From an uncultured delta proteobacterium (GTDB lineage: Bacteria; Desulfobacterota; Binatia; UBA9968), in contig CAVXEP010000032.1 of NCBI GenBank assembly GCA_963760795.1, positions 224,001 to 288,000 on the forward strand: a stretch of 64,000 nucleotides of DNA, read 5' to 3'. Of this stretch, positions 15,404-32,624 are shown piece by piece; the stretch's first letter is position 1, and every line of letters starts with the position of its first letter. The notes below the pieces were generated by a model, which was not told the origin of the DNA, made no database searches, and saw only the letters and a program-made list of their open reading frames with translations. Both the position numbers and the translations under genes were made by a program.

Positions 15404-17399
15404 GTAATCTCGATACTGCGATCGGTTATCGGCGCCGCGGCTTCTCGGTTATCCCGATCAGGCCCAAAGGTAAAAAACCCTCGTCGCCTGGGAACCCTTT
15501 CAGTCAGAACCCGCATCCGAAGAAATTATCAAATTTTGGTTTACCAATTGGCCTAACGCAAACATAGCAATCGTGACGGGCGCTATCTCGGATGTTGTTG
15601 TGATTGACCTGGACAGCGACGGAGCCAAGGAGAAGATCAAGGCGCTAGTCCCTGACTATGATCTTTCCGCTGTGCCAAGAGTGCGGACCGGCCGCGGCGG
15701 GTATCATCTGTTTTTCAAGCATCCGGGGGGCAGCGTTCAAACTCGCGCGGGCGTTCTTCCAAAGACCGACATCCGCGCCGATGGCGGCTATGTCGTCACG
15801 GCGCCTTCTATCCATGAGAGCGGGAAAACCTACATATGGGAAGTACCGGTAAGCGCGGAACTGCCCACATTGCCCCCAGAGCTATTCAAGCTTCTTTCGG
15901 CGCCATCTAGCAACAACAACAACAACGACAATGGCTATCGCGAGCGATTCAATACAGCGCAATCGCTAGACGGAGTTCCCGAAGGCCAGCGCGATGAAAC
16001 CATTTTTAAACTCGCCTGCAAATTGAGATCAGCCGATGTGCCGCAAGAGATGGCCGAGACTCTAATTGTTGAAGCCGCGAGAAACTGCCAGCCGGCGTTT
16101 TCTGAAAAAGTAGCATTAGAGAAAGTCAAAAGGGCTTATGTTCGATACCAGCCGACGGGAGCGAAGGGACCACCTAATCAGAAGGAAATATGGCCAGAGT
16201 TTTTGACCGCGAAAGAGATTCTTCAGGCGCCGAAGGATCCGACCCGATGGATAGTTTCGGAGTGTTTGCCGGCTGGCGGTGCTTCCGTCCTAGTCGCGAA
16301 GCCGAAGGTAGGAAAGAGCACAATCGCCGCGGACCTCGCTATATCGGTATCGCGTGGCGAACCATGGCTAGAGCGCTCGACACAACAATCGCCAGTTGCC
16401 TACGTATTCCTTGACGGTCCGCTTACCGATATTGCCGATACGTTCGTGCAGCTTGGGCTGCGTGAATCGGATCCGGTGTTCATTCATGCCGGCAGCGCGC
16501 CTGCTGATTCTATCCCGTGGATACTGGCCGCGGTGAAAGAGAAAGGCGCCCGGCTGGTGATCATCGATGTTTTACAGAAGTTCTGCCGGTTCGAAAACAT
16601 CAACGACTATTCCGAAGTCTCGACGAAGATGGAGCCCCTACTCGAGGCGGCCCGGGCCGGGAACTGCCACTTGATGACGTTGCATCACGCCAAGAAGGAT
16701 TCCCACGACGACCTTGACGCGGCGATTGGATCAACGGCCATCCGGGGGCTTTGCTACACCTACGTATTCGCCAAGCGGCTGGCTAATAGCGAGCGGCGCA
16801 TCCTGAGCAGCGACCAACGCGGCGGAAAAAACTTCGGCGAAGTGGGTATCGGCTTCGATAAACTCACCGGGCGGCTTTACGTGCAAGGCACGATTGACGA
16901 TGTTGAGATCGAAGAGGCATCGCCGTTGATTCTCAAAGTGCTTGAAGGCGACGACGAACAGCGCGAGAACGAAATCCGAAAGTCCGTTCCTATGCGCGGC
17001 TGGATTGTCGGCAAGGCGCTGCGTTCGTTAGTCAAAAAAGGTGACGTTGAGCGCACTGGTACCGGGAAGAAGGGAAGCGCATTCCGCTATTCTCTAGCCT
17101 CTAACCTGCTGGCCAATAGCGAAGGACCGATGGGCCATTCCGATGGCCTCTTAGGAAGGGGGATTGTTAAGGGGGAAACGGATTCTAGTCCCTCTTTTCA
17201 TTCTCTAGGAAACGGCACTGTGGGACTAGCATCCCAAAAAAACCTTCAAGATGTTGAAAACACTAAAAAAGATTCTAGTCCCAAGGTTCGGGACGAGCAT
17301 GGGACGAGCAGGGACGAGAATCTTTTTTCGGGGGGGTCGGGACTAGCATTTACTGGCGCCGAAAATGTTCCTGAAAGTGGCTGGACAAAGGTGCGATGA
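15400..17399 (+). CDS. Bifunctional primase-polymerase fused to AAA_25/RepA-like helicase; single-base frameshift near 15480
   Basis: GFSVIPI..GKKP, then W..F..WPNANIAIVTG, VIDLD, RTGRGGYHLFF, DIRADGGYVVTAPS; PEGQRDETIFKLA primase C-term; Walker A AKPKVGKS, Walker B LVIIDV, HHAKK. Confidence 0.88.
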
Positions 17400-17596
17400 G
17401 ATACGCCGAAGACATACTGATTGAAGTCAAGATTCTTGACGATGGCGCCATACTGGGGCGTCGCAAAGATCGAAAGCCGATGACCGCGGTCGACCTAAAA
17501 GCGGCGCAGCAGTTGGCAGACAGTGAGCCGGGAATCACGGTCGGTGACGTGCTGCGAGTAATTCCGGGCGCAAAGGTTCTACAGAAAGGCCGATGA
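17396..17596 (+). CDS. Hypothetical protein
   Basis: ATGA overlap with the primase stop. Confidence 0.5.
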   Translation: MRYAEDILIEVKILDDGAILGRRKDRKPMTAVDLKAAQQLADSEPGITVGDVLRVIPGAKVLQKGR

Positions 17597-17663
17597 GACA
17601 GTTTAGTTTCACGGGATTTTAGAAAACCAAGGAGAGGCTCATTTCTCTCGGAGACCTGATTTT

Positions 17664-18038
17664 ATGATCACCACAGGCGCGCTGAATTTTGAGAGGGTTG
17701 GATTATCCGAGCTAATCATCACCGCCGGCCCGGACAGTCTGCGAACTATCACCAGCGCCGCCGCGATGCATGAACACGCGGTCCAGATTCGCGCGGCATT
17801 GGCGCAATTAGCTCAGCACGGGACGCCGCGCATCATGGACATTGTGCTAAACCACAATCGCTTTTCTTCCCCATACGTCCCTTACCTGTTTACGATTACC
17901 GCCGAGGGCTCGCAGCGTAAGCTTGATGTCGGTACCCGCGGTTACATATGCGTTGCTGACCATCGCCCTGGTGTTCTTACTAGCGGTTTGGTCGAACCTT
18001 CAGTCTTGGAGTCATTAGCCGACTTTTTGGATGGATGA
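17664..18038 (+). CDS. Hypothetical protein
   Basis: GGAG RBS, co-oriented in the island operon. Confidence 0.5.
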   Translation: MITTGALNFERVGLSELIITAGPDSLRTITSAAAMHEHAVQIRAALAQLAQHGTPRIMDIVLNHNRFSSPYVPYLFTITAEGSQRKLDVGTRGYICVADHRPGVLTSGLVEPSVLESLADFLDG

Positions 18039-18059
18039 TAAACAAGGAGAAATCTATTT

Positions 18060-18676
18060 ATGAGTATAGATCTTGAACAATTGCGCACCGACCGCGGCCA
18101 GATCGCCAACGATCGCGCATGGCGAGAACCGCGGCGCCTGTTGGAAGATTTAGAACCAGAGTTAGCCGAATTACGCGGCGAAAGGGCTGTGCTTGAAAAT
18201 CCGCCGGCATCGGTCAAGTCAACGGCGGACAGGATTTTACGCGAGTGGAATCCTTCGCCGACCGATCCGAAGGGGTTGGCGACAGCGGTTCGCGAGCTGC
18301 GTAGCGCCGCCATCGGCGCCTTGCAACTGATTTTTGACAAGCCCGCAGAGATCGCGGCATTACTGGAGGAGATCGAAACCGTAATCCGGCAACCTTTACG
18401 AGTACCAGCCCGGCCGTGCTCGCCGCTGTCTATCGTAGACGGATCGCGCCGTTACTTGGCAACGCCAAGGGCCTTGAGACCATCGTTGATGAGCTGTTGC
18501 GCCAGGAGCAAGACGCGCTTGCGCTGGCAAAGCAGCATTTAGAAGCGCAGCAGGCAAACCAAGCTGAGCCCGTACCGAAACAGCGTCGCACGCTTTCGAC
18601 TGTGCTGTCCCCCGACGATGAGCCCAAGCATCGGTCGTCGCGCGAATTCTCGGTGCTATCCGGCTCGGTGCGATAA
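18060..18676 (+). CDS. Hypothetical helical/coiled-coil protein, probably one gene split by an indel near 18390
   Basis: AAGGAG RBS; two overlapping ORFs with continuous helical character. Confidence 0.45.
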
Positions 18677-18692
18677 TTGGCCGAGCGCAGGT

Positions 18693-18960
18693 ATGAGCGA
18701 GCCGGCGAAAAATCCGTTTGACCTGTTAGTCGATCAGATCCGCGAAGTTGTGCGCGAAGAGATCCGGGCAACCACAAAGGAGACCCCGCAGAAGAGTCTT
18801 TTTTCAACCAAAGAGGCGGCCGCCATTTTGAACGTCGAAGAGTCATGGCTTGGCGCGAAAGCGAGAGCCGGAAAAATTCCGCACCGTATGCTTGGCCACT
18901 ACCGTTATTTTTCCGTGAGCGACATTGACGAGATCATTGCAAGCGCTGGTGTACCCGTGG
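18693..18960 (+). CDS. Excisionase-type HTH_17 domain protein (ORF formally runs to 19238; true end uncertain)
   Basis: LFSTKEAAAILNV..SWL...ARAGKIPHRMLGHYRYFSVSDIDEII. Confidence 0.75.
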
Positions 18961-18965
18961 TACAC
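18949..18965. promoter_or_regulatory. Perfect inverted repeat GTGTACC-cgt-GGTACAC, putative operator
   Basis: Ends 7 nt before the XRE gene ATG and lies just downstream of a TTGCAA -35-like hexamer. Confidence 0.55.
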
Positions 18966-18972
18966 ATGAGCC

Positions 18973-19143
18973 ATGAAGGGCAAGGAGTTCAAGCGAACAC
19001 GGAAGGCGTTGAAGATGAGTCAAGCCCAACTGGCGAAAGTGATGGGCGTTACGGTGACGGCGGTGGCGAGATGGGAGAGGGACGAGCGGCCAATCTCCGG
19101 GCCGGTAGCGTTGGCGATGAAACTCTTGCTCGAAAAAAAATAG
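18973..19143 (+). CDS. XRE/Cro-family HTH protein, 56 aa (absent from ORF track)
   Basis: MKGKEFKRTRKALKMSQAQLAKVMGVTVTAVARWERDERPISGPVALAMKLLLEKK. Confidence 0.85.
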   Translation: MKGKEFKRTRKALKMSQAQLAKVMGVTVTAVARWERDERPISGPVALAMKLLLEKK

Positions 19144-19155
19144 CCGGAGGGGAAA

Positions 19156-20051
19156 ATGTCGACACACAAAACCAGCGCGGACACTTGGGAAGTCAGATTT
19201 CGAGTCCAAGGGCAGCAAAAGCAAAAGACCTTTCGTAACTACCGGGCGGCGGTGAGTTTTGACGAGAAAACCAAAACGCAATTGCGCGACGGCGACTACG
19301 TGGCGCCGTCGGTTTTCAACGTGAAGGAGATCGTTGAAAAGTGGCTGGAGGCGCGCCGGCCCCGGTGGAAGGAGCAAACCTATCTCAGCCACAAAACACA
19401 CTTGAGCAAATACATCACGCCACGGCTTGGGGAGATAAAGGCAACGAGCCTTCGGGCGGTTGATGTGGAGACGGCCGGCGCCGAGTGGGAAAAATCAGTG
19501 AGCGCGAAAACCGTCAACAAAATATTCGCCACGTTGGCGAGTTGAACGCCTTGCGTTGGGCGACGATTAGTTTCAAAACTTCAAAGATTTTTGTGAACCG
19601 ATCGCTAACCGAGCTCAAAGGCGGCGCCGTACTCGAAAAGCCCAAGACACCTAACGCATATGGTTACGTCAAGGTACCGGCCGAGCTTGTCGCAGAGCTT
19701 CGACGCTGGAAACTTCGCTGTCCGCCGTCGCCGAACGACTTTGTTTTTGCCGATGAGTTGGGCCGGCCGATGAACCGCAAGCCAAACAACCGGATGCTTA
19801 AAGCGGTATGCGATCGCGCCCAAGTCCGAGCCTTGACGATGAATAACTTGCGCCATTCCTTTGCCAGCCAACACTTGATCGCTGGAACCGCGCCGCTCGA
19901 AGTCTCAAAACTCATGGGCCATAGCGATCCGGCCGTCACGCTGAAAGTTTATTCACGATGGGCAGAGCGAGAAGAGTCAAAGGCGGAACTGGCACTGGCG
20001 AGCCGGATATTCGGAGCCGCAGAACCGCAGGAACAAACCGGGAGCGAGTGA
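19156..20051 (+). pseudogene. Tyrosine integrase with internal deletion and frameshift near 19535
   Basis: N-terminal arm/SAM-like region (YITPRLG...SAKTVNKI) joined directly to GELNALRW; C-terminal NLRHSFAS and LMGHSDPAVTLKVY intact; box-I TG.R Arg missing. Confidence 0.85.
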
Positions 20052-20599
20052 TGAAAGAGGACGCACCATTCGAGACCGTAACCAAGTTGGAAGCGGCAGA
20101 GCGGCAGTTGCGTGTCGCTATCCGAATGTTCTTTGAGTGTAAAGACATGATCGCGGTCCACGTACTTGCGGTTGGCGCGCAGGAAATTTTCAGCAAATTG
20201 GGTAAGAAGCATGGATTCAAAGGAATGTGGGAATCTATCGACTCTTTACCGCCGGAAAACAAAAAAGTGCTTGTCGACCATCTGAGAAAGGCGCAGAATT
20301 TCTTTAAGCATGCCAGCCGGGACCCAGAGGAGAAATTAGACTTCGATTATGAGGATACACGCTTTGTCCTTTTTGATGGGGTTGGGCTATGCCACGCCCT
20401 CATCGGTCGCTTCAGCCCAGAGATGACGATGTATCTCGGCTGGTTTGCGTCAAAGTACCCCGCGATGCTGAGACTAACGCCGCTGAGAGAAATACTCATC
20501 GATTCGACCAGCAAAATTAACTTTGAAAACTTCGAGAACGTCCTTCAGTTCCTCGATAAGCGGAACACTGAAGGTCAACACAAGGTCAACATGACGTGA
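20051..20599 (+). CDS. Hypothetical protein, possibly HEPN-like
   Basis: TKLEAAERQLRVAIRMFF...AVHVLA...QNFFKHA; last cargo gene before attR. Confidence 0.6.
   Translation: MKEDAPFETVTKLEAAERQLRVAIRMFFECKDMIAVHVLAVGAQEIFSKLGKKHGFKGMWESIDSLPPENKKVLVDHLRKAQNFFKHASRDPEEKLDFDYEDTRFVLFDGVGLCHALIGRFSPEMTMYLGWFASKYPAMLRLTPLREILIDSTSKINFENFENVLQFLDKRNTEGQHKVNMT
20571..20596 (+). repeat. Tandem AAGGTCAACA pair (putative integrase arm-type site, right)
   Basis: 25/26 identical to 8087-8112; ~100 bp inside attR. Confidence 0.7.
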
Positions 20600-20978: not shown

Positions 20979-21245
20979 ATGCCGACATATGACCTAACTG
21001 TTCGTTGCAAGGATTGCGGCCACGATCATTCGATTCTCATGAGGCTCCACATCGAAGAGGGTGCGGACCGCAAGCAAAGCATCGCTGAGCTATATCATGG
21101 GCGTTCTGTCCCTCCACAGGTTGCGGCCATTCGCGGGCACCTCGCGTTCTGTCACAAAACGGGTAGGAAGTTCCCGCTGGAAAACGATAGCGAAATTTAT
21201 TTAGTGCCGCCGACGGTTTTCAGACGATATACGGTCACCCAATAA
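20979..21245 (+). CDS. Small Cys-containing (zinc-ribbon-like) hypothetical protein
   Basis: CKDCGHDH and CHKTG motifs; AAGGT RBS. Confidence 0.65.
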   Translation: MPTYDLTVRCKDCGHDHSILMRLHIEEGADRKQSIAELYHGRSVPPQVAAIRGHLAFCHKTGRKFPLENDSEIYLVPPTVFRRYTVTQ

Positions 21246-21477
21246 GCGCGCCAAAAGCCTGGTTAATAACGCCAACATCATTCATAAAGTCGATTAGGTT
21301 GTGTCCCGTAACGCACTCCCCGGGCTTGGTGTGGCGGAGCGAAGCCTGCCATCGCTATCAAGAGCCGAATTGACCAATGCGATAAAGGCGGCCAACTGTC
21401 TTTCCAGGTTTTTTTTCATGTGGTAAGTGTTCTTAAGTGTTGCAGCTTCCGGTCTGTTTTTCAGTCCCGTATTGGCA

Positions 21478-21502
21478 CGTGCGAATCGCGCCGGTGGCAT
21501 TT
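21478..21502 (+). repeat. Degenerate third copy of tRNA-Arg 3' end
   Basis: CGTGCGAATCGCGCCGGTGGCATTT vs tRNA CGTTCGAATCGCGCCGGGGGCATTT (23/25). Confidence 0.7.
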
Positions 21503-21543
21503 ACTTTGTTTACGAGTTACCGACAATCGAGGAGATAGTTGCC

Positions 21544-22290
21544 ATGGCGGTGGTGTCGAGCAGCGATTTCGTTAAAGAGATCCAGCAAATGGTGCGGGCC
21601 AAGCACTCCAAGCATCATCCGATTATCGGCATGATCGAAGACGGCAAGCTCGACCGCGAAGCGCTCAAAGGCTTTATCGGCCAGTTTTATTTATTTTTCC
21701 CCAAGCCCTTCCCGAAACCGATCGCGGCGATGTTGGCGCGTTGCCCGGACGATCCCGAGCTCGAAAAAATGTGGATCGAGAACGTCGTCGAAGAGGGCAC
21801 GGGAGAGATCACCGGCACCGATAGCCACAAGGCGCTGTTTATCCGCTTCGCCAAAGCTTGCGGTTACGCCAACAAGGAAGAGCTCGACCGCATCGAGCCG
21901 ACGCCGGAGACCCAGGCGTTTCTCGACTGGCGCGAGCTGTTGATGTCCCAACGCACTTGGCTGGAGCTCTATGCTTGCCAGGGATTCTGTCTCGAAGGCA
22001 CGGCGAACGAGCGCATGACGCGCATCGTCAACGGCCTCACCCAGCATTATGGCTTTACCCGCGAGTCGGAAGATATCCGTTACTGGACGCTGCACATGGG
22101 CGTCGACGAGGAGCATATGAAAGTCGGACCGCTGGCGGTGGAACGTTACGCCGTGACCGAACCGCAGCAAGTGGCGGTGCGCGCCGCGGTGTTGAAAACT
22201 TTAGACCAGTTCTGGTTGGCGTTCGACGGCATTGTCCGGGCCTACGTCGACAAAGATCCGCTCTACGGACGCTGGCGCGGCGGCAAGTAA
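21544..22290 (+). CDS. Heme-oxygenase-like diiron enzyme (PqqC/CADD/TenA superfamily)
   Basis: HPII, ENVVEE-x9-H, CLEG, WTLHMGVDEEH ligand pattern; GAGGAG RBS. Confidence 0.85.
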   Translation: MAVVSSSDFVKEIQQMVRAKHSKHHPIIGMIEDGKLDREALKGFIGQFYLFFPKPFPKPIAAMLARCPDDPELEKMWIENVVEEGTGEITGTDSHKALFIRFAKACGYANKEELDRIEPTPETQAFLDWRELLMSQRTWLELYACQGFCLEGTANERMTRIVNGLTQHYGFTRESEDIRYWTLHMGVDEEHMKVGPLAVERYAVTEPQQVAVRAAVLKTLDQFWLAFDGIVRAYVDKDPLYGRWRGGK

Positions 22291-22300
22291 ACAAGGAGAT

Positions 22301-22963
22301 ATGTCTATGGAAATGATCGATTTGTCACGGCTGATTTACGACGGCATGCCGAAGATTCCGATCCTACCGGAAGTCCACGTGACGAAGTTTTTGAGCCTGG
22401 ATAAGGGCCACCCCTTGAACGTCACTGAGTTGTCGATGCCCTGTCATGCTGGTACTCATGTCGACGCGCCGATCCACATAATGCCCAACGGCAAATCTAT
22501 CGACGAGTTACCGGTGGATGCCTTCGTCGGCACCGGCGCGGTGATCAGCGTCAAGAAGAACGGCGGCGAAGAGGTGACGGCAAAAGATTTAGAAGCATCC
22601 GGCGTCGCGGTCAATCGCGGCGATATCCTCATGCTCCATACCGGCTGGGACGTGAAGTTCGACAGCCCGGATTACAATCTGCATCCTTATCTTTCCGTCG
22701 ACGCCGCCGAGTGGATGGTCAAGAAGGGTATCAAGATGTTCGGCATCGACTGCATCACCGTCGACCTGCCGACGCCGCTGCGGCCCAAAGGGTTCGATTT
22801 TCCGGTGCATCGAACCTTGCTCGGCAATAATGTTCTGATCGCCGAGAACGTCACCAACTTGGGTGCGGTGGTCGGCAAGCGCACGCGCATCATGGCGCTG
22901 CCGCTGCGGGTCAAAGGCAGCGACGCCGGCCATGCGCGCATCGTCGCTGAAGTTTTAAATTAG
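22301..22963 (+). CDS. Cyclase family protein (KynB-like metallohydrolase)
   Basis: IDLS, HAGTHVDAPIH, VHRTLL...IAENVTNL, GSDAGHARIVA. Confidence 0.92.
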   Translation: MSMEMIDLSRLIYDGMPKIPILPEVHVTKFLSLDKGHPLNVTELSMPCHAGTHVDAPIHIMPNGKSIDELPVDAFVGTGAVISVKKNGGEEVTAKDLEASGVAVNRGDILMLHTGWDVKFDSPDYNLHPYLSVDAAEWMVKKGIKMFGIDCITVDLPTPLRPKGFDFPVHRTLLGNNVLIAENVTNLGAVVGKRTRIMALPLRVKGSDAGHARIVAEVLN

Positions 22964-22993
22964 CGGTGTCGCCGGGTTGCTGTGAAGACGATT

Positions 22994-23067
22994 TTCACCA
23001 CGAAGGACACGAAGATCACGAAGTTCGGAAAAGTAAATTATTGAAAACCTTCGTGCCTTCGTGGTGA
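22994..23067. repeat. Palindromic intergenic element with CACGAAG 9-nt units (copy 1)
   Basis: CACCACGAAGGACACGAAG...CTTCGTGCCTTCGTGGTG; related copies at 25591 and 28995. Confidence 0.8.
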
Positions 23068-23127
23068 GCTAAACATTTCTGCATCGCACAAATGTTTCAC
23101 ATCTGGCTGAAGAGCTTGAACTAGACT

Positions 23128-24096
23128 ATGGTAACGACCAAACCTATCAGTGGCATCATTGGCGCCTGTTTGACGCCCTTCGACGTGAATGATCGCGTCG
23201 ATTACAAGGCGCTTGAAAAGGAAATCGAATTTCTTATTCCCGACTGCGACGCGATCACGGTGGCGGCGGTGGAAGCGGCGGAATACACCATGCTGTCGCG
23301 CGACGAGCGCAAGGAAGTGCTCAAAGTCGCCACCGAAATGATCGGCGGCCGGGTGCCGGTGATCTTGGGCTGCTCCAGTCCGGCGCCGCGCGAGGTTATT
23401 GAACTCGCCGAGTATGCCGCTACGGTGAACGGCGACTTCATTCAGGTGCTGATGCCGCTGCGTCCCTGGGGCGGTCAGCCGACCATCGCCGAGCTCATGG
23501 AGTTCTACACCCAAGTGGCTTCGGCTAGTCCTTTGCCGGTTACTTGTTATCACAATCCCGGTCCGGGCGCCGATCCACCTCAGGATGCCTTCGTTAAGAT
23601 CAGCGAGATCGACAACATTCGTTACTTCAAAGAAAGCTCCCGCGACATCACCAAGATTTCGCGTTTGATCGAGCAGATCGAGCTGGCTGGGCGCGGTCAC
23701 TATTTTACCACTATGCAGCCGCTCTTGGTCACGCTCATGCTTGGCGGTTCCGGCGCCACCATGCCGCCGCCGGGGACGCGCATTGGCGCGCAGATCGTCA
23801 AAGCATTTCGCGCCGGCGATTTGGAGACAGCCAGATTTTGGGCGCGCTGCTACGCGTTATTTCCCGGGAAATGGGGCGCCTACGGTTTGCCGCCGGTGAT
23901 GAAGTCGGCGATGAAACATTTCGGTGTTGATCTCGGCCAGCCTTGCCGGCCGTATGCGCCGGTGAGTCCGCGCGACCATGAGCAGATTGGCCAGTTCTTG
24001 CGCCAAGTCGGTCTCATCGGCGAGTCCGGGCCATCGCCACAGGGTTTGCTTGCTGCCGGCGAAAAGCTCCGGCAAGAAGATACCTTCTTAAGATAG
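23128..24096 (+). CDS. Dihydrodipicolinate synthase/N-acetylneuraminate lyase family aldolase
   Basis: LTPFD..DRVDY, GRVPVILG, CYHNP, FKESS Schiff-base Lys. Confidence 0.9.
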   Translation: MVTTKPISGIIGACLTPFDVNDRVDYKALEKEIEFLIPDCDAITVAAVEAAEYTMLSRDERKEVLKVATEMIGGRVPVILGCSSPAPREVIELAEYAATVNGDFIQVLMPLRPWGGQPTIAELMEFYTQVASASPLPVTCYHNPGPGADPPQDAFVKISEIDNIRYFKESSRDITKISRLIEQIELAGRGHYFTTMQPLLVTLMLGGSGATMPPPGTRIGAQIVKAFRAGDLETARFWARCYALFPGKWGAYGLPPVMKSAMKHFGVDLGQPCRPYAPVSPRDHEQIGQFLRQVGLIGESGPSPQGLLAAGEKLRQEDTFLR

Positions 24097-24163
24097 TCAA
24101 CGACGCAGCTGCGGCAGTTTTGGATAAGCGAAGCCGGACGGCGTGGCGGAGGTTTGTACAATT

Positions 24164-24349
24164 ATGGAATGGCTTAAAGATCTTTCCGACAAATTGATCA
24201 TCTGGTTTTTGCGCGCGTTATCCGGCTTTGGCAAGGAACTCACCGCCGACGGCAGGCGCGAGCAGCAACTCTGGCGCGAGCAGCGGCTGAGAAATCTCCA
24301 GGGACTGGCGCAACGCTCGAAGCAGCGCTTTGGCGCTCAAGATAAATAA
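24164..24349 (+). CDS. Small hypothetical protein
   Basis: GGAGG RBS, 61 aa, between aldolase and SQR-like genes. Confidence 0.5.
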   Translation: MEWLKDLSDKLIIWFLRALSGFGKELTADGRREQQLWREQRLRNLQGLAQRSKQRFGAQDK

Positions 24350-24373
24350 ATTCCGCGAAACCAAGAACTCAAC

Positions 24374-25531
24374 ATGCAACTCGTATCGCGGCGAAAAAAG
24401 ATTGTCATTTTAGGCGGCGGCTGCGGCGGCGTGGTGGCGGCGACCCATTTGGGCCGCAAGCTCGGCGCGGATCACGACGTCATTCTAATCGACCGACGCG
24501 CCGATCATATTTTCATGCCGGCGTTTCTGTTCATCATGATCGGCGAGCGCCAACCCCGCGATATCAGCCGGAATTTGAAAGTAATCGAGAAGCGCAACGT
24601 TAGAGTCATTCAGTCGGAGATACTTGGCATCGATCCGATCCGCCAGGAAATTTCTCTGGAAAACGAAAAGATCAATTACGACTACTTGATAACTTCGCTA
24701 GGGTTGCAGACCCGTCCCGACTTGGTTCCCGGCTTTGCTGACGCCTCGCAGCATCCCTGGGAGATGGAATCGGCGCTGCGTTTGCGTGCGAGCCTGGAAT
24801 TGTTTCGCGGTGGCAGGGTAGTCGTTGGTGTGCCGCTTGGACCGTACCGCTGCCCGCCGGCGCCCTATGAGGCGCAGTGGATGCTTGACGGCTATTTCCG
24901 CCAAAAGGGCATCCGCGACCGCGTTCAGATCGATTACTTCACTCGAGAGGCGGAACCAACCGGCGAAGCTCATGATCCGACGGTGTGGATGAATGCCGAA
25001 AGCAAACGGCGCGGCATCAAGCAGCACTTCGAGTTTGTCGTCCGGTCAATCGACCCGGAGAAAAAGGTTGTGCAGGGTTTGTACAATTACAGTGTACCCT
25101 ACGATCTGCTGGTCATGGTGCCGCCGCACCGGCCGGCGCAGGTGCTGCTCGATAGCGGTCTGGCCGAGAGCGAAACCGGTATCCGCGTCGACTACGACAC
25201 GCTGCAAACCAAATGGGACAATGTTTACGCCATCGGCGATTGCGCCGACATGCCGGCGTCGAAAGCCGGCGGCGTTGCGCACCAAGAAGCGGATGTGCTG
25301 GCGCATAATCTCGCCGTCGAGATCACCGGCAAGGGCAGACCGGTGGACCTCTGGCTGCACACCATATGACTACTCGCCTTCGGCGCTGGACGCGCCGCCG
25401 CAAACCGAACGACGTATCCTACCGGCTGGCCGCCCTTCGGCGTCACCGATCCGCGCACCTGGGGGCCGTCTAGGGCGATCTATTGGGCGAAGGTCGGCTT
25501 CGAGAAATGGTGGCTGTGGCGTTATTTTTAA
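24374..25531 (+). CDS. Sulfide:quinone oxidoreductase/FCSD-like flavoprotein, predicted selenoprotein (UGA 25367-25369 = Sec332), 385 aa
   Basis: GGGCGG FAD motif, YRCPPAPYE, AIGD..KAG; frame continues past TGA into family-typical GPSRAIYWAKVGFEKWWLWRYF; hairpin CGGCGC-TGGAC-GCGCCG at 25381-25397. Confidence 0.82.
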
Positions 25532-25590
25532 TAGTTAAATGGACTCGTCTGTGGTCGAAACGAATCTGCTTATTGAATAACATCACTTTC

Positions 25591-25668
25591 CACCACGAAG
25601 GCACGAAGGACACGAAGGTTTCGGATGATTAAAATTCCGAATTTCGTGCTCTTCGTGCCTTCGTGGTG
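25591..25668. repeat. Palindromic CACGAAG element (copy 2)
   Basis: CACCACGAAGGCACGAAGGACACGAAG...TTCGTGCTCTTCGTGCCTTCGTGGTG. Confidence 0.8.
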
Positions 25669-25729
25669 AAGACAATCTTTGCTTCGTCGATTGCGGCGTG
25701 ATCACGCTGCTCTATTCACAATCGCCCGC

Positions 25730-27229
25730 TCAGGACCACGCTTGCTCCGCCGCGGCATTCTGCCCGGCGATTTTTCCCGCGACGAAACATTCGGTGATGT
25801 TGCCGGCTTCCAAATAGAGATGGCCGTAGATCGAGCTGATCTCGCCGGCGACGTAGAGGCGCGGGATCGGGCGCTTCATCGGATCGAGCACGCGTTGATT
25901 GACGTCGTGTTCGGGGCCGCCCTGAGTGTTGTTGACGATGGGCCAGGCTTCCATGACGTAGAACGGCCCGGTCTTGATCGGCATCATGGTTTTCGGCGGC
26001 CGTTTGTGGTCCTCGTCCTGGCCTTTGGCGCAGAGTTCGTTCCAGCGTTCCACCGTGGCTCTGAGCACTTTGGGATTGACGTCGATCTGCGCCGCGATGT
26101 CTTCCAGCGAGTTGCCTTTTTTGATCCAGCCTTTGTCGATCTCGGCGAGATTGTCCGCGCTCCAGCTGGCGTCATAACGCTCGTCATTGACGATGGGAAT
26201 GCCGATCGGGCCCAACTTGCGGCCTTCCTCGTCGAAGATCAGATAGCAGGGGATGCGCGGATAGTCCTGAATATCGGCGTCGTAGTATTCCAGCGCCCGG
26301 GTGCCGGTGTCCTGGGGCGCGGGCGGGTACTCGTCCATGAAGCGCTTGCCAGATTTGTCGACGCCGATCCAGATCATCTTGCGGTTCTCGTTTCTCGGTC
26401 CGGCCCAGACATGGCGGATGGCGAAGGGCAGTTCGGCAAACTTGAAGCCGTAGCCGCCGTGAAAGTGCCACATATGCCAGAGGCCGGCGCCGGCTTTCTG
26501 CGCCATCTTCAAGCCGTCGCCGGTGTTGCCGAGATAGACCGGATAGACCGGCTGGGCTTGGAAGTATTGCAGCTTCAGGGCATCGTCGTTTTCGTAGCCG
26601 CCGCAGCACAGAATGACGCCCTTATTCGCCTTGATACGAATCGTCTTGCCGTTATGCTCGGCGACCAGGCCGATCACTTCGCCGTCGCCATTCAAGACCA
26701 ATTCTTTCGCCGGCGTCGAGAGCATCACTTCGATGTTGCGCTGGTTGACGTTGTCGTAGACGACTTTGAACAGCCGCGCGCCGCCGCGCAGTCCTTTGGC
26801 CCAGGGGAATTCCTCGTAGGCTTGGAAGTCTTTGAGCTTGATCGAATCGATCTCGTTGGTGCCGGGAAATGGATAGGTGCCATGGCCGCGGGTCTCGGTC
26901 TTGGACGGCTCGGTGCCGCTGACTTTGGCGAGCTCGGTGACCCAGTCGATCATGCCGACCATCTCTTCGGCCATCTTGCGCAGTATGTCGTCCGGCGTGG
27001 TGCCGTTGCAGGTCCGTTGCAAATATTGAAAAGCGCCTTCGGCGTTATGCGCGAAGGCGACGCCGCCGCCGGAGAGAATCGAGATGCCGCCGGGGTGGGG
27101 CATTTTTTCGATCAATAAAACTTTCGCGCCGGCGTCGTGGGCGGTGATCGCCGCGATGCCACCCGCGGCGCCGTAGCCGACAACGAGCACGTCGACTTCT
27201 TTGTCCCAAACTAAATTCGCTGTTGCCAC
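25730..27229 (-). CDS. FAD-binding dehydrogenase (flavocytochrome c/KstD/TcuA-like family)
   Basis: WDKEVDVLVVGYGAAG, GGISILSGG, NTGDG, TQGGP, PIPRLYVAGE; GGAGG RBS. Confidence 0.88.
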   Translation of the reverse strand: MATANLVWDKEVDVLVVGYGAAGGIAAITAHDAGAKVLLIEKMPHPGGISILSGGGVAFAHNAEGAFQYLQRTCNGTTPDDILRKMAEEMVGMIDWVTELAKVSGTEPSKTETRGHGTYPFPGTNEIDSIKLKDFQAYEEFPWAKGLRGGARLFKVVYDNVNQRNIEVMLSTPAKELVLNGDGEVIGLVAEHNGKTIRIKANKGVILCCGGYENDDALKLQYFQAQPVYPVYLGNTGDGLKMAQKAGAGLWHMWHFHGGYGFKFAELPFAIRHVWAGPRNENRKMIWIGVDKSGKRFMDEYPPAPQDTGTRALEYYDADIQDYPRIPCYLIFDEEGRKLGPIGIPIVNDERYDASWSADNLAEIDKGWIKKGNSLEDIAAQIDVNPKVLRATVERWNELCAKGQDEDHKRPPKTMMPIKTGPFYVMEAWPIVNNTQGGPEHDVNQRVLDPMKRPIPRLYVAGEISSIYGHLYLEAGNITECFVAGKIAGQNAAAEQAWS

Positions 27230-29500: not shown

Positions 29501-31292
29501 ATGGCGAAAGTCGATCTTTCCATCGCAATTGGCGGCGCAGCCGGCCAGGGCATCGCCACGCCCGGCGATATCCTGGCGCGCATCTTCGTGCGCCGCGGGT
29601 TGCATCTAAACGCCTACAACGCCTATCAGTCGATTGTGCGCGGCGGTCATATTTTTCTCACCCTGCGCACCAGCGACGCGCCGGTGCTGAGCTTCGGCGA
29701 CAAGCTCGATGTTTTAATCGCGCTCAATCAAGATACCATGAATCGCCATCTCGGCTTGATGACGCCGGGCTCTTCGGTGCTTTACAACAAGGACAAGATC
29801 AAACCTGGACGCTGCTCGGCCGGGCGTCCAGCTTTGCGGTTTCTCGGTGAAGGAACTGGCGCCGGCGGTCCGAGGCGATTTGGTGCAGAATACCATTGCG
29901 TTGGCCGCGGTGCTGCAGTTGATCGGCGTCGAATTTAAAATTCTCGAAGAGATACTCACCTTGCAGTTCAAGCGAAAGGGCGACGCGGTGGTCGCCGAAA
30001 ACGTCGGCGTGGCGCGCGCCGGTTACGATTACGCCGCGGCGCAATTCAAGTCCTTGCCGGTCACGCTGCCGGATACCGGCAAAAGACTTGCGTTCTTCGA
30101 AGGCAACCAGGCGTTGGCCATGGGCGGCGCGGCGGCGGGAGTTCGATTTTACTGCGCCTATCCGATGAGCCCGGCCTCCGGCGTGTTGCACTGGATGGCG
30201 CGCCACGCGCGCCAATTGGACATCATGGTGCGCCAAGTGGAGGACGAGATCGGTGTCATCAATATGGCCATCGGCGCCGCCCACGCCGGCTGCCGCGCCA
30301 TGTGCGCGACCTCAGGTGGCGGGTTCGCTTTGATGACCGAGGGACTGGGCGCCGCGGCGATGATGGAAATCCCCGTTGTCTGTATCAACGTGCAGCGCGC
30401 CGGGCCGGCCACCGGCGTGCCGACGAAAACCGAGCAGGGCGATTTGTGGCAAGTGTTGGGTGCGGGGCAAGGAGATTATCCGCGCATCATCGTGGCGCCG
30501 ACAACGATCCCGGATTGTTTCAAAACGGTACCGAAACTTTTTAACCTAGTCGATAAGTTTCAGTGCCCCGGTATCATCTTGTCGGATTTACTTCTCTCCG
30601 AGGGCAGATCGAGCGTCGACCCGGCGGAGTTGGATTTCAATGTAGCGATCGAGCGCGGTGAGGTGATCGGCCTAAACGGCGCGACGCCGCCGCTCAACGG
30701 CGGCTACAAACGTTATGAGATCAACGACAGCGGCATCTCGCCGCGCGCGCTGCCGGGCACGCTGGGGTTCGAGCATGTGGTCGCCACCGACGATCACGAT
30801 GAAGACGGCGTGCTGATCAGCGACGAGTACACCAATCCGCACAAGCGCCAGGCGATGCATGAGAAGCGCATGCGCAAGATGGATTCGATTCTGCCGCTGC
30901 TCGACGCGCCCAAGCTCTGGGGCGCCGCTGACGCGCAAGTCACGCTGGTCGGCTGGGGCTCCACCGAAGGGGTCGTCCAGGAGGCGATCCAGAAGCTGGC
31001 CGACGAGGAAGGCATCGCCGCCAATCAGCTGCAGATCAAATGGCTCGTGCCGTTACATGGCGAAGCGATCGTTTCGACTCTGGCAAAGAGCAAGAAAACC
31101 ATCATCGTCGAGAACAACTATAGCGGCCAGTTCGCGCGTTATTTACGGTCGGAGACCGGCATCGTCGCCGACGGTCATATTCGCAAATATGACGGCGAAC
31201 CGTTCATGCCTCATCATATTGTCGATGGTGTGAAAGCGATCTTGGCCGGCGGAACGAAACAATATGTGCCGGTGCATGAAATTATGGTCTAA
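29501..31292 (+). CDS. 2-oxoacid:acceptor oxidoreductase alpha subunit (gamma-alpha fusion); one frameshift near 29815
   Basis: IGGAAGQG, YQSIVRGGH, GNQALAMG, YPMSP, QVEDE, ATSGGGF, QRAGPATG. Confidence 0.9.
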
Positions 31293-31379
31293 CAAATCCT
31301 TGTTTCGAGTCTCGTGTTCCGGGTTTCGGGTTGAACTCGAAACGCAAAACTCGTAACCCGAAATAATCAAAAGGAGCGA

Positions 31380-32313
31380 ATGATGACATTATCTACGGTC
31401 GAACTTGAATCTAAGGCTTCTGTGCCGCCGCGGGCGAACATGCCGTTGACGGTCAAGGATTTTAAAGGCAAGGCCGAACCGGATTGGTGCCCGGGCTGCG
31501 GCGACTTTGGCGTGCTCGTCGCGTTAAAGCAGGCGCTCGTGGAGCTGGGTATTCGTCCGCACCAGGCGATGGTGATCAGCGGTATTGGCTGCTCTTCGAA
31601 CCTGCCCGGTTACATGAGCACCTACGGCATGCATACTTTGCACGGCCGCGCGCTGTCAGTCGCCACCGGCGCGCAGATGGCCAATCACGAGCTGAAAATC
31701 ATCGTCACCGGCGGCGACGGCGATGGCTACGGCATCGGCGGCAATCATTTCGTTCACTCGATGCGGCGCAACGTCGATCTCACTTATATCGTGATGAACA
31801 ATCAAGTTTATGGGCTGACGACCGGCCAGATCTCGCCGACCAGCACCAAGGGAATGAAAACCAAGAGCACGCCGGCGGGCAGCGTGGAGAATCCGCTTAA
31901 TCCGATCCCGCTGGCGATCGCCGCCGGCGCGACCTACGTCGCCAGGGCGTACACTGGGCAGGTGAAACATATGGTCGAGCTCATCAAGGGCGGCATTCAA
32001 CACCGAGGCTTCTCGCTGATCGATGCCTTCAGTCCTTGCGTAACCTTCAATCTCGAAAACGATCACGATTTTTTCAAACAGCGCACGTTCAAGCTGGAGG
32101 ATAAGAAGCATGATCCGACCGACTTCGCCGCCGCCATGAAGTATGGTTACGATTGGGGCGATGAGATCGCCATCGGTTTGTTCTGGAAACGCGACGATCT
32201 GCCCGCCTTGGATCAGCTCGAGCCCGTGCTCGACGAAGGCGGTCCGCTGGCGCGCCGCTCCCTCGGAATTTCTCCGGATGTCGGCAAAATCGTTGATTCG
32301 AGAGTTGATGTAA
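31380..32313 (+). CDS. 2-oxoacid:ferredoxin oxidoreductase beta subunit; likely extra A near 32288, true end KSLIRELM*
   Basis: WCPGCGD, SGIGCS, HGR, GGDGD TPP motif, YGLTTGQ, SPCVTF. Confidence 0.9.
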
Positions 32314-32624
32314 CGGACCGCGTCCGTCATACCGTTGAAGAACGGTATCCAGATTCTGGGGATGGACCCCGGTTTTCACCGGGGTGACGGTCAGTTCGGA
32401 ATGACTGAATTAAGATTCGATCTTTAGTTCACGAATTCAGCGCCCTTTGGAATAGAGCCAACGGACTTTAGTTTGCCCTCGGTTTACCCGCATCGGTACG
32501 GGGCAGGTTTCAAACCTGCCCTACGAAGATCCGCGCACCTCAACTTAGTCTCGCTTCCCACATAGTTGGCATCCCGCTATCGCCTCGTGATACTCCTGAA
32601 ACAAAAATTTACGGGAGCGATCAC

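Follow-up and report, generated by a model that had tools for sequence, protein, structure and literature searches.

A Putative Selenocysteine-Containing Flavoprotein of the Sulfide:Quinone Oxidoreductase Family, Truncated by Annotation in Uncultured Candidatus Binatia

Introduction

Among the type III sulfide:quinone oxidoreductases (SQRs), the enzymes of Caldivirga maquilingensis and Methylacidiphilum fumariolicum (MFUM_v2_0219) have been characterised (PMC10205796). A selenocysteine (Sec) "type III SQR", represented by the NCBIfam family NF049943 (SQR_III_seleno), was predicted in 2025, and the supplement of that paper shows a Sec protein with the segment ...GHAVU FIESG..., whose Sec falls in the same alignment column as the HTIU motif discussed here (PMC12013277). 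The family appears with the motif HxxU in a 2026 review, which refers to the deep-Sep paper (PMC13188914). As a Sec at this position of an SQR has thus been published for a different clade (PMC12013277, PMC13188914), the idea of a Sec-containing SQR is less new than was assumed in an earlier reading of the present locus made from the nucleotide letters by themselves (the sequence-only reading). A literature search found no paper joining 'Binatia' and 'selenocysteine'.

The locus described here lies in a 64,000-nucleotide stretch of DNA from an uncultured member of the Binatia; this whole stretch is called the window, and the flavoprotein gene, the elements within it and the four ORFs described directly upstream of it are on the plus strand. 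Its flavoprotein gene is a variant of the Sec-SQR kind first predicted in 2025 and belongs to a separate clade that is still truncated by annotation. New here are a conserved 61-aa upstream ORF, fused to the flavoprotein in three MAGs, and the invariable linkage of the gene to a DHDPS-like/cyclase/haem-oxygenase-like cluster.

Reading Frame and Conservation of the TGA Codon

The called ORF (24374–25369) encodes 331 aa and ends ...LWLHTI before a TGA at 25367–25369. Translation through this codon continues for 53 extra codons (LLAFGAGRAA...KVGFEKWWLWRYF) to a TAA at 25529–25531, as the sequence-only reading had claimed, and yields a gene of 385 aa (24374–25531, TAA included) that was assigned to the SQR flavoprotein family by translation, Pfam, an AF2 model and structural matches. 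The TGA is codon 332, in the motif HTI-U, and its identity in orthologous loci together with the conserved Cys aligned with it mark it as a predicted Sec codon. When 61 genomes of the same order, among them the window's own, were searched in six frames, 53 of them (window's genome counted) gave a match at the threshold of E ≤ 1e-120; these tallies include the genomes G004 and G035, flagged as unpublished, and the loci fetched for further analysis contain none of their DNA. Every search row spanning residue 332 had exactly one TGA, with one row also having a TAG. The aligned codon was TGA in all 40 loci taken from the order relatives, and the 53-codon tail was present in 39 of 39 loci reaching its end, the remaining locus stopping at a contig end. 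Similarly, TGA was found in 78 of 80 loci from public species-representative genomes, at identities down to 61%, and the tail had 53 codons in all 77 loci that reach its end. In the other two public loci the single-frame alignment did not include the query position, and the matches were one base longer than the rest, so that indels are suspected. The public loci come from MAGs, most of which carry the label Candidatus Binatia or 'delta proteobacterium' and some the labels Acidobacteriota, Chloroflexota, Verrucomicrobiia and others (labels as deposited). TGA-containing orthologues, which the sequence-only reading had proposed to look for, thus proved to be the rule.

If the TGA were a true stop, translation would give a truncated 331-aa protein, and the 159 nt that follow would be either an unrelated element or a remnant in decay. 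The public records are written in this way, as all gene callers end the ORF at the TGA, and 117 of the best 120 listed homologues are exactly 331 aa long; among the 120 listed matches to residues 300–385, only P0027, a full-length Cys form, covers the tail. The constant length of the tail in all loci reaching its end speaks against a remnant, and so does its median dN/dS of 0.083 (672 pairs), compared with 0.098 for the 100 codons preceding the TGA. The tail is under purifying selection equal to that of the body, and the decay of the 3′ part that would have undone the sequence-only reading was seen in none of the loci reaching the end. Furthermore, Cys-containing relatives have a C-terminus homologous to the tail, which is modelled at high confidence as three strands and a helix, and the truncated protein would be left without its second redox residue. 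A true stop at this codon is considered extremely improbable.

A second concern raised at the outset was a read-level error, in which the TGA would stand for a TGC or TGT Cys codon. The assembly may indeed have homopolymer errors, as suggested by a frame change in its selD gene (see below), but the identical TGA was recovered in 118 of 120 independently assembled loci. In addition, a separate soil DNA run yielded contigs that span the codon (record 3, 24856–25408), with no change at the codon among the differences listed, 67 more lying beyond the list. With more than 100 independent assemblies and the bridging DNA-run contigs, this source of the TGA is excluded for practical purposes, and its probability is regarded as negligible. 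RNA-library contigs from the same sequencing-run search cover positions 24372–24669, 24719–24980, 25115–25169, 25208–25354 and 25379–25576; none of those listed spans the TGA, and DNA carry-over is possible for them.

Global reassignment of TGA was rejected as an explanation. The codon is a true stop in 13 of 38 long ORFs of the window, and it ends the flavoprotein gene itself, downstream of the recoded position, in 14 of 39 orthologues from the order relatives and in 24 of 77 public ones; since TGA also serves as a normal stop, the code is not reassigned.

Selenocysteine Machinery and the Downstream Hairpin

Searches of the window's genome detected selB (410 bits), selA (612 bits) and selD (379 bits), and a tRNA-SeC with the anticodon UCA was also found. 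In all five single-contig relatives, selB and tRNA-Sec lie on the gene's own chromosome. The RF01852 control also matches genomes that are not known to use Sec, and for this reason selA and selB carry the weight of the machinery argument. The selD gene (L009, G000:C11:1948–2862, minus strand) has its own in-frame TGA (...AAG-TGA-AAKLGPGDL), and an N-terminal piece, 'RLTQ', is encoded in a different frame some 20 nt further upstream, where an AAAA run occurs; the frame change near the 5′ end of this gene is probably a homopolymer or assembly error.

A SECIS-like hairpin occupies positions 25381–25397, with a stem strand CGGCGC at 25381–25386, a loop UGGAC at 25387–25391 and a stem strand GCGCCG at 25392–25397. 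It starts 11 nt past the UGA and its loop starts 17 nt past it, in agreement with the placement given in the sequence-only reading. Bacterial SECIS models of the bSECISearch type describe a stem-loop shortly after the UGA with a G in the apical loop, and the present element, with its 11-nt spacer, 6-bp stem and loop of the form NGGNC, has this arrangement; we take its spacing and GG loop to fit such models. The hairpin was found in the minimum-free-energy fold of an 81-nt stretch, the folding energy of which did not exceed that of dinucleotide shuffles (z = 0.42; 127 of 200 shuffles at least as stable). An Rfam scan of 25300–25560 at E ≤ 10 returned no SECIS family and just a chance match to a viral stem-loop (E 1.6). 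As the shuffles fold equally well, the case for the hairpin rests on conservation and not on stability.

Conservation of the stem was evaluated in 39 distinct sequences, in which 99.6% of 234 stem cells pair; three of the pairs are invariant, three change only to G-U, and no pair shows compensatory double changes. A shuffle control of the pairing was uninformative, the columns barely varying. The stem is formed by the codons GGC, CGC and GCC of the segment G-A-G-R-A, and protein constraint explains most of its conservation. Given that the Gly, Arg and Ala codons also constrain the stem bases, only three synonymous sites speak for RNA structure. These four-fold sites, in stem codons +5, +8 and +9, have entropies of 0.17, 0 and 0.29 bits and are the three lowest of 61, the other four-fold sites having a median of 1.42 bits and a minimum of 0.57 bits. 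The loop codons +6 and +7 are variable (1.72 and 0.83 bits, respectively), and in MAGs that have Ser in place of the Arg (AGC for CGC) the sole change is at the base adjoining the stem.

Reading of the UGA with a standard amino acid, either by a near-cognate Trp or Cys tRNA or through local reassignment, would also give a 385-aa product. Nothing specific was found in its favour, and it is at odds with the complete Sec machinery of the genome, with a conserved hairpin at the distance usual for bacterial SECIS elements, with the use of TGA as a normal stop elsewhere, and with the position itself, a redox Cys site at which Cys and Sec are classically exchanged. This alternative is judged highly unlikely. 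Decoding of UGA-332 as Sec, the preferred reading, is very probable on the combined sequence evidence. The SelA/SelB/SelD/tRNA-Sec system of the organism would decode the codon, and SelB would be recruited by the hairpin within the coding sequence, formed by the codons of G-A-G-R-A.

Family, Fold and Catalytic Residues

The protein matches Pfam Pyr_redox_2 and FCSD_central and carries an N-terminal GxGxxG, which places it in the SQR/flavocytochrome-c sulfide dehydrogenase (FCSD) family. The dinucleotide (FAD) binding motif is GGGCGG, residues 14–19 (24413–24430), in which G14, G16 and G19 are at least 90% conserved. The best PDB sequence match was human SQOR (E 3e-32); in this alignment C160 corresponds to the Cys of 'vkCagap' and residue 332 to that of 'ytsCpl', which we take to be the two Cys of the catalytic trisulfide. 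Cys160, the first redox-active Cys, is encoded by the TGC at 24851–24853 within YRCPPAPYE. The sequence-only reading had located this Cys correctly in the motif CPxAPYE, which is present as CPPAPYE; the Cys is residue 160, not 159. Its further claim, that the TGA stands at the second redox Cys, agrees with the alignment to human SQOR and with the presence of Cys at column 332 in 101 of 118 full-length family representatives. In an alignment of 78 sequences, C160 and C332 were each at least 90% conserved. P0027 is 71% identical over the 385 aa and has Cys at 332, and in the trees it is nested within the Sec clade. The Glu of the family motif C-F-x-E-x-G is replaced by Ala in the window's Sec clade.

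The AF2 model built on the 78-sequence alignment had a pLDDT of 94.4 and a pTM of 0.92. Residues 328–385 are modelled as three strands, the first of which includes residue 332, and a terminal helix at residues 367–384 (SRAIYWAKVGFEKWWLWRY; 25472–25525). This helix lies entirely downstream of the TGA and, by comparison with the SQR family, is likely to be a membrane-surface anchor. According to the model, a 331-aa product would be without the redox residue, part of the sheet and the likely membrane helix. The best PDB matches found with Foldseek were the SQRs of Aquifex, Acidithiobacillus and human (3hyv, 3sz0 and 8dhk; E ~1e-32, TM 0.82–0.86), followed by flavocytochrome c sulfide dehydrogenases. 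The Sec-containing SQR-like enzyme with a Cys-Sec pair put forward in the sequence-only reading is supported by these results in its pair and family; 'SQR' is here a family assignment, and sulfide:quinone activity is a prediction from homology.

Small Upstream ORF

A conserved small ORF (24164–24349), of 61 aa from an ATG at 24164 or 68 aa from a GTG at 24143, ends 24 nt before the flavoprotein start. In 77 of 80 loci, tblastn located it immediately before the Sec gene, and it matches no Pfam or NCBIfam family. Its near-invariant residues include S8, D9, F22, E25-L-T27, G30, E33-Q34, W37-R38 and R41. In three MAGs labelled Acidobacteriota (L129, L144 and L150), the small ORF and the flavoprotein share one continuous frame, in which the small ORF forms the N-terminal part, and the L150 fusion has an additional hydrophobic, membrane-helix-like N-terminal leader. 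From this arrangement, the 61-aa protein is likely a subunit of the flavoprotein.

Upstream Cluster and Neighbouring Genes

Further upstream, a DHDPS-family (class I aldolase-like) gene (23128–24096; Pfam DHDPS) ends 67 nt before the ATG of the small ORF, and was present in each of the 72 loci that extend 1300 nt or more upstream. It is preceded by a cyclase/arylformamidase-like gene (PF04199; 22232–22963, the true start probably being later than 22232), found in 56 of 65 loci with at least 2200 nt upstream, and by a gene for a Haem_oxygenas_2/CADD/PqqC-like iron redox enzyme (21427–22290), found by tblastn in 57 of 80 loci, many of which are too short to reach it. The three genes lie on the same strand as the Sec gene, with short gaps. 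Linkage to the DHDPS-like gene was kept down to 48–65% DHDPS identity in MAGs labelled Acidobacteriota and Chloroflexota. In the nearest Cys clade (P0201-like), the small ORF and the DHDPS-like, cyclase and haem-oxygenase-like genes were found in none of five loci. A promoter and terminator scan of 21000–25800 gave no more than chance and no information on operon limits.

A fusion of metallo-beta-lactamase (MBL) and rhodanese domains is the usual partner of SQR in heterotrophs. Such a persulfide-dioxygenase-like fusion, with the Blh sulfur transferase/dioxygenase as its best NCBIfam match, follows the gene in 16 of 66 loci, all of them from the order's two sister families. In the 64-kb window, no sulfur-oxidation neighbour was found, a convergent FAD_binding_2 gene standing in place of the fusion, and an MBL homologue lies about 50 kb off on the contig. 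Elsewhere in the genome (L155, G000:C15:120213–121402, minus strand), an intact MBL-fold (HxHxDH) gene comes after a rhodanese gene, and the two are possibly a persulfide dioxygenase pair. This MBL-fold gene on contig 15 was also considered as a selenoprotein and was rejected, the flagged '1 TGA' lying upstream of its start.

Several other elements were observed around the cluster. A few kb upstream of it, positions 15573–20599 encode a Prim-Pol + AAA_25 protein (608 aa), an HTH_17 protein and a short phage-integrase-family ORF, and this region appears to be left over from an integrated mobile element. A long inverted repeat at 25590–25670, right past the stop of the flavoprotein gene, is possibly a terminator or an intergenic element of the REP type; 15 nt of it are found again on the opposite strand at 23049, in the spacer between the cyclase and DHDPS genes. 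Further downstream, two adjoining 2-oxoacid:ferredoxin oxidoreductase genes (29847–32387; POR_N/POR and TPP_enzyme_C/PFO_beta_C) are followed by an Amidohydro_2 gene and one for an ABC substrate-binding protein.

An alternative reading is a selenoprotein that is not a sulfide detoxifier. The flavoprotein, with its small subunit, would be the last enzyme of a conserved five-gene array, comprising a haem-oxygenase-like iron enzyme, a cyclase/amidohydrolase, a DHDPS-like aldolase, the small protein and the Sec flavoprotein, and its substrate, to be oxidised or reduced, would be a product of that pathway: an organic thiol, persulfide, disulfide or selenium compound. The constancy of the DHDPS-like and cyclase genes, the persistence of the linkage at low DHDPS identity, the minority of loci with a persulfide-dioxygenase-like neighbour, the absence of the array from the sister Cys clade and the Glu-to-Ala replacement in the C-F-x-E-x-G motif all point in this direction. 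They have to be weighed against the fact that synteny is not co-function, that the 24-nt gap joins only the small ORF to the flavoprotein, the DHDPS-like gene being 67 nt off, and that the protein is of the SQR type in its fold, in its two redox positions and in its terminal helix; moreover, no known pathway unites the DHDPS-like, cyclase, haem-oxygenase-like and SQR families. A role of this kind is possible and is the less favoured alternative.

Proposed Function and Significance

The explanation that we prefer, and consider likely as a whole, combines SelB- and hairpin-dependent Sec decoding with a Cys160/Sec332 FAD enzyme of the SQR fold that acts with the 61-aa partner. The product would be a 385-aa FAD enzyme with the sulfide:quinone oxidoreductase/flavocytochrome-c sulfide dehydrogenase fold, in which a redox-active pair of Cys160 and Sec332 would replace the usual Cys and Cys, and to which the last 53 residues would contribute three strands and the terminal amphipathic helix. 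If the mechanism follows that of SQRs, the pair would form a selenenyl-sulfide or a bridging S/Se chain beside the flavin, and electrons would pass from sulfide or a related persulfide to FAD and on to a membrane quinone. Of the two residues, Sec would be the stronger nucleophile and the better leaving group. The enzyme most likely works together with the protein encoded 24 nt upstream.

Sulfide or a persulfide is slightly favoured as the physiological substrate. Free sulfide may not be the substrate, because the gene is linked to the DHDPS-like/cyclase/haem-oxygenase-like cluster in all of the loci long enough to show it (72 of 72). A more specific proposal, which we regard as rather unlikely, is that the Sec flavoprotein and its 61-aa partner form a two-part selenoenzyme that ends a five-gene pathway, with an organic S/Se intermediate or selenide, instead of free sulfide, as its substrate. 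Should this be true, abundant uncultured bacteria of soil would have put the SQR fold, with a Sec gained independently, to a new chemical use.

As currently annotated, an enzyme found in the majority of genomes of a major uncultured soil lineage loses its second catalytic residue and its likely membrane helix, and NCBI's Sec-SQR model misses the window's clade. A second, probably independent, replacement of Cys by Sec at one SQR site suggests that this position profits from selenium, and P0027 offers a natural Cys counterpart to the Sec form. The small partner and the fixed link to a catabolic-looking cluster provide leads on the real role of the enzyme.

Comparison with Known Systems

The phylogenetic position of the protein was determined with FastTree (130 rows) and with IQ-TREE in quick mode (LG+G4, 61 rows), the published Sec sequence being left out of both. 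The Sec clade, with 99–100% support, comprises 18 Sec rows, the nested Cys form P0027 and two database proteins that end at 331. The database representatives P0190 and P0198 (57% and 48% identical to the window's protein, respectively) end exactly before position 332 and branch at the base of the Sec clade; on these grounds, the distribution of the Sec form is probably wider than the lineages sampled here. The NF049943 group falls within another clade, which has 100% support, and Cys forms occur on either side. Its representatives that pass the model's cut-off (P0232, P0237 and P0245) are Cys forms of 412–420 aa, and they are 31–35% identical to the window's protein. Since branches with 100% SH-aLRT support and Cys forms separate the two clades, two gains of Sec are the simplest reading, and Sec probably arose independently in the window's clade.

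Compared with human SQOR and the bacterial type I SQRs (6oi5, 3hyv and 3t2y) and with FccB (1fcd and 5n1t), which gave the best PDB sequence and fold matches, the window's protein has both redox positions aligned and differs in its low identity (22–25%), in Sec at the second position and in having no cytochrome partner. With the characterised type III SQRs it shares a short SQR-type flavoprotein, and its best NCBIfam match by far is to NCBI's only 'type III' model. The characterised enzymes carry Cys where the window's enzyme has its predicted Sec, and the Methylacidiphilum gene sits with the TusA and DsrE2 carriers, whereas the window's gene does not (PMC10205796). The NCBIfam name is the sole indication of a type III subtype for the window's enzyme, which is a provisional label, the named type III sequences being absent from the trees.

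The closest described relative in kind is the Sec SQR of NF049943. The superfamily, the fold and the Sec column are common to both, and in both the first Cys lies in a K/R-C-P-x-A-P-x-E motif. A His three residues before the Sec column is likewise shared, as seen in HTIU (window), in GHAVU (the protein displayed in the published supplement) and in GHSNC (Cys members), and the window's HTIU conforms to the family motif HxxU. The NF049943 model scores the window's protein at 255.2 bits, and its genome at 249 bits, against a curated cut-off of 525, and the two groups fall in separate clades with 99–100% SH-like support. Unlike the members of the NF049943 group, which have 406–420 aa, the window's protein has 385 aa and a different C-terminal helix, and its clade is further set apart by the small partner ORF and by the DHDPS-cluster context.
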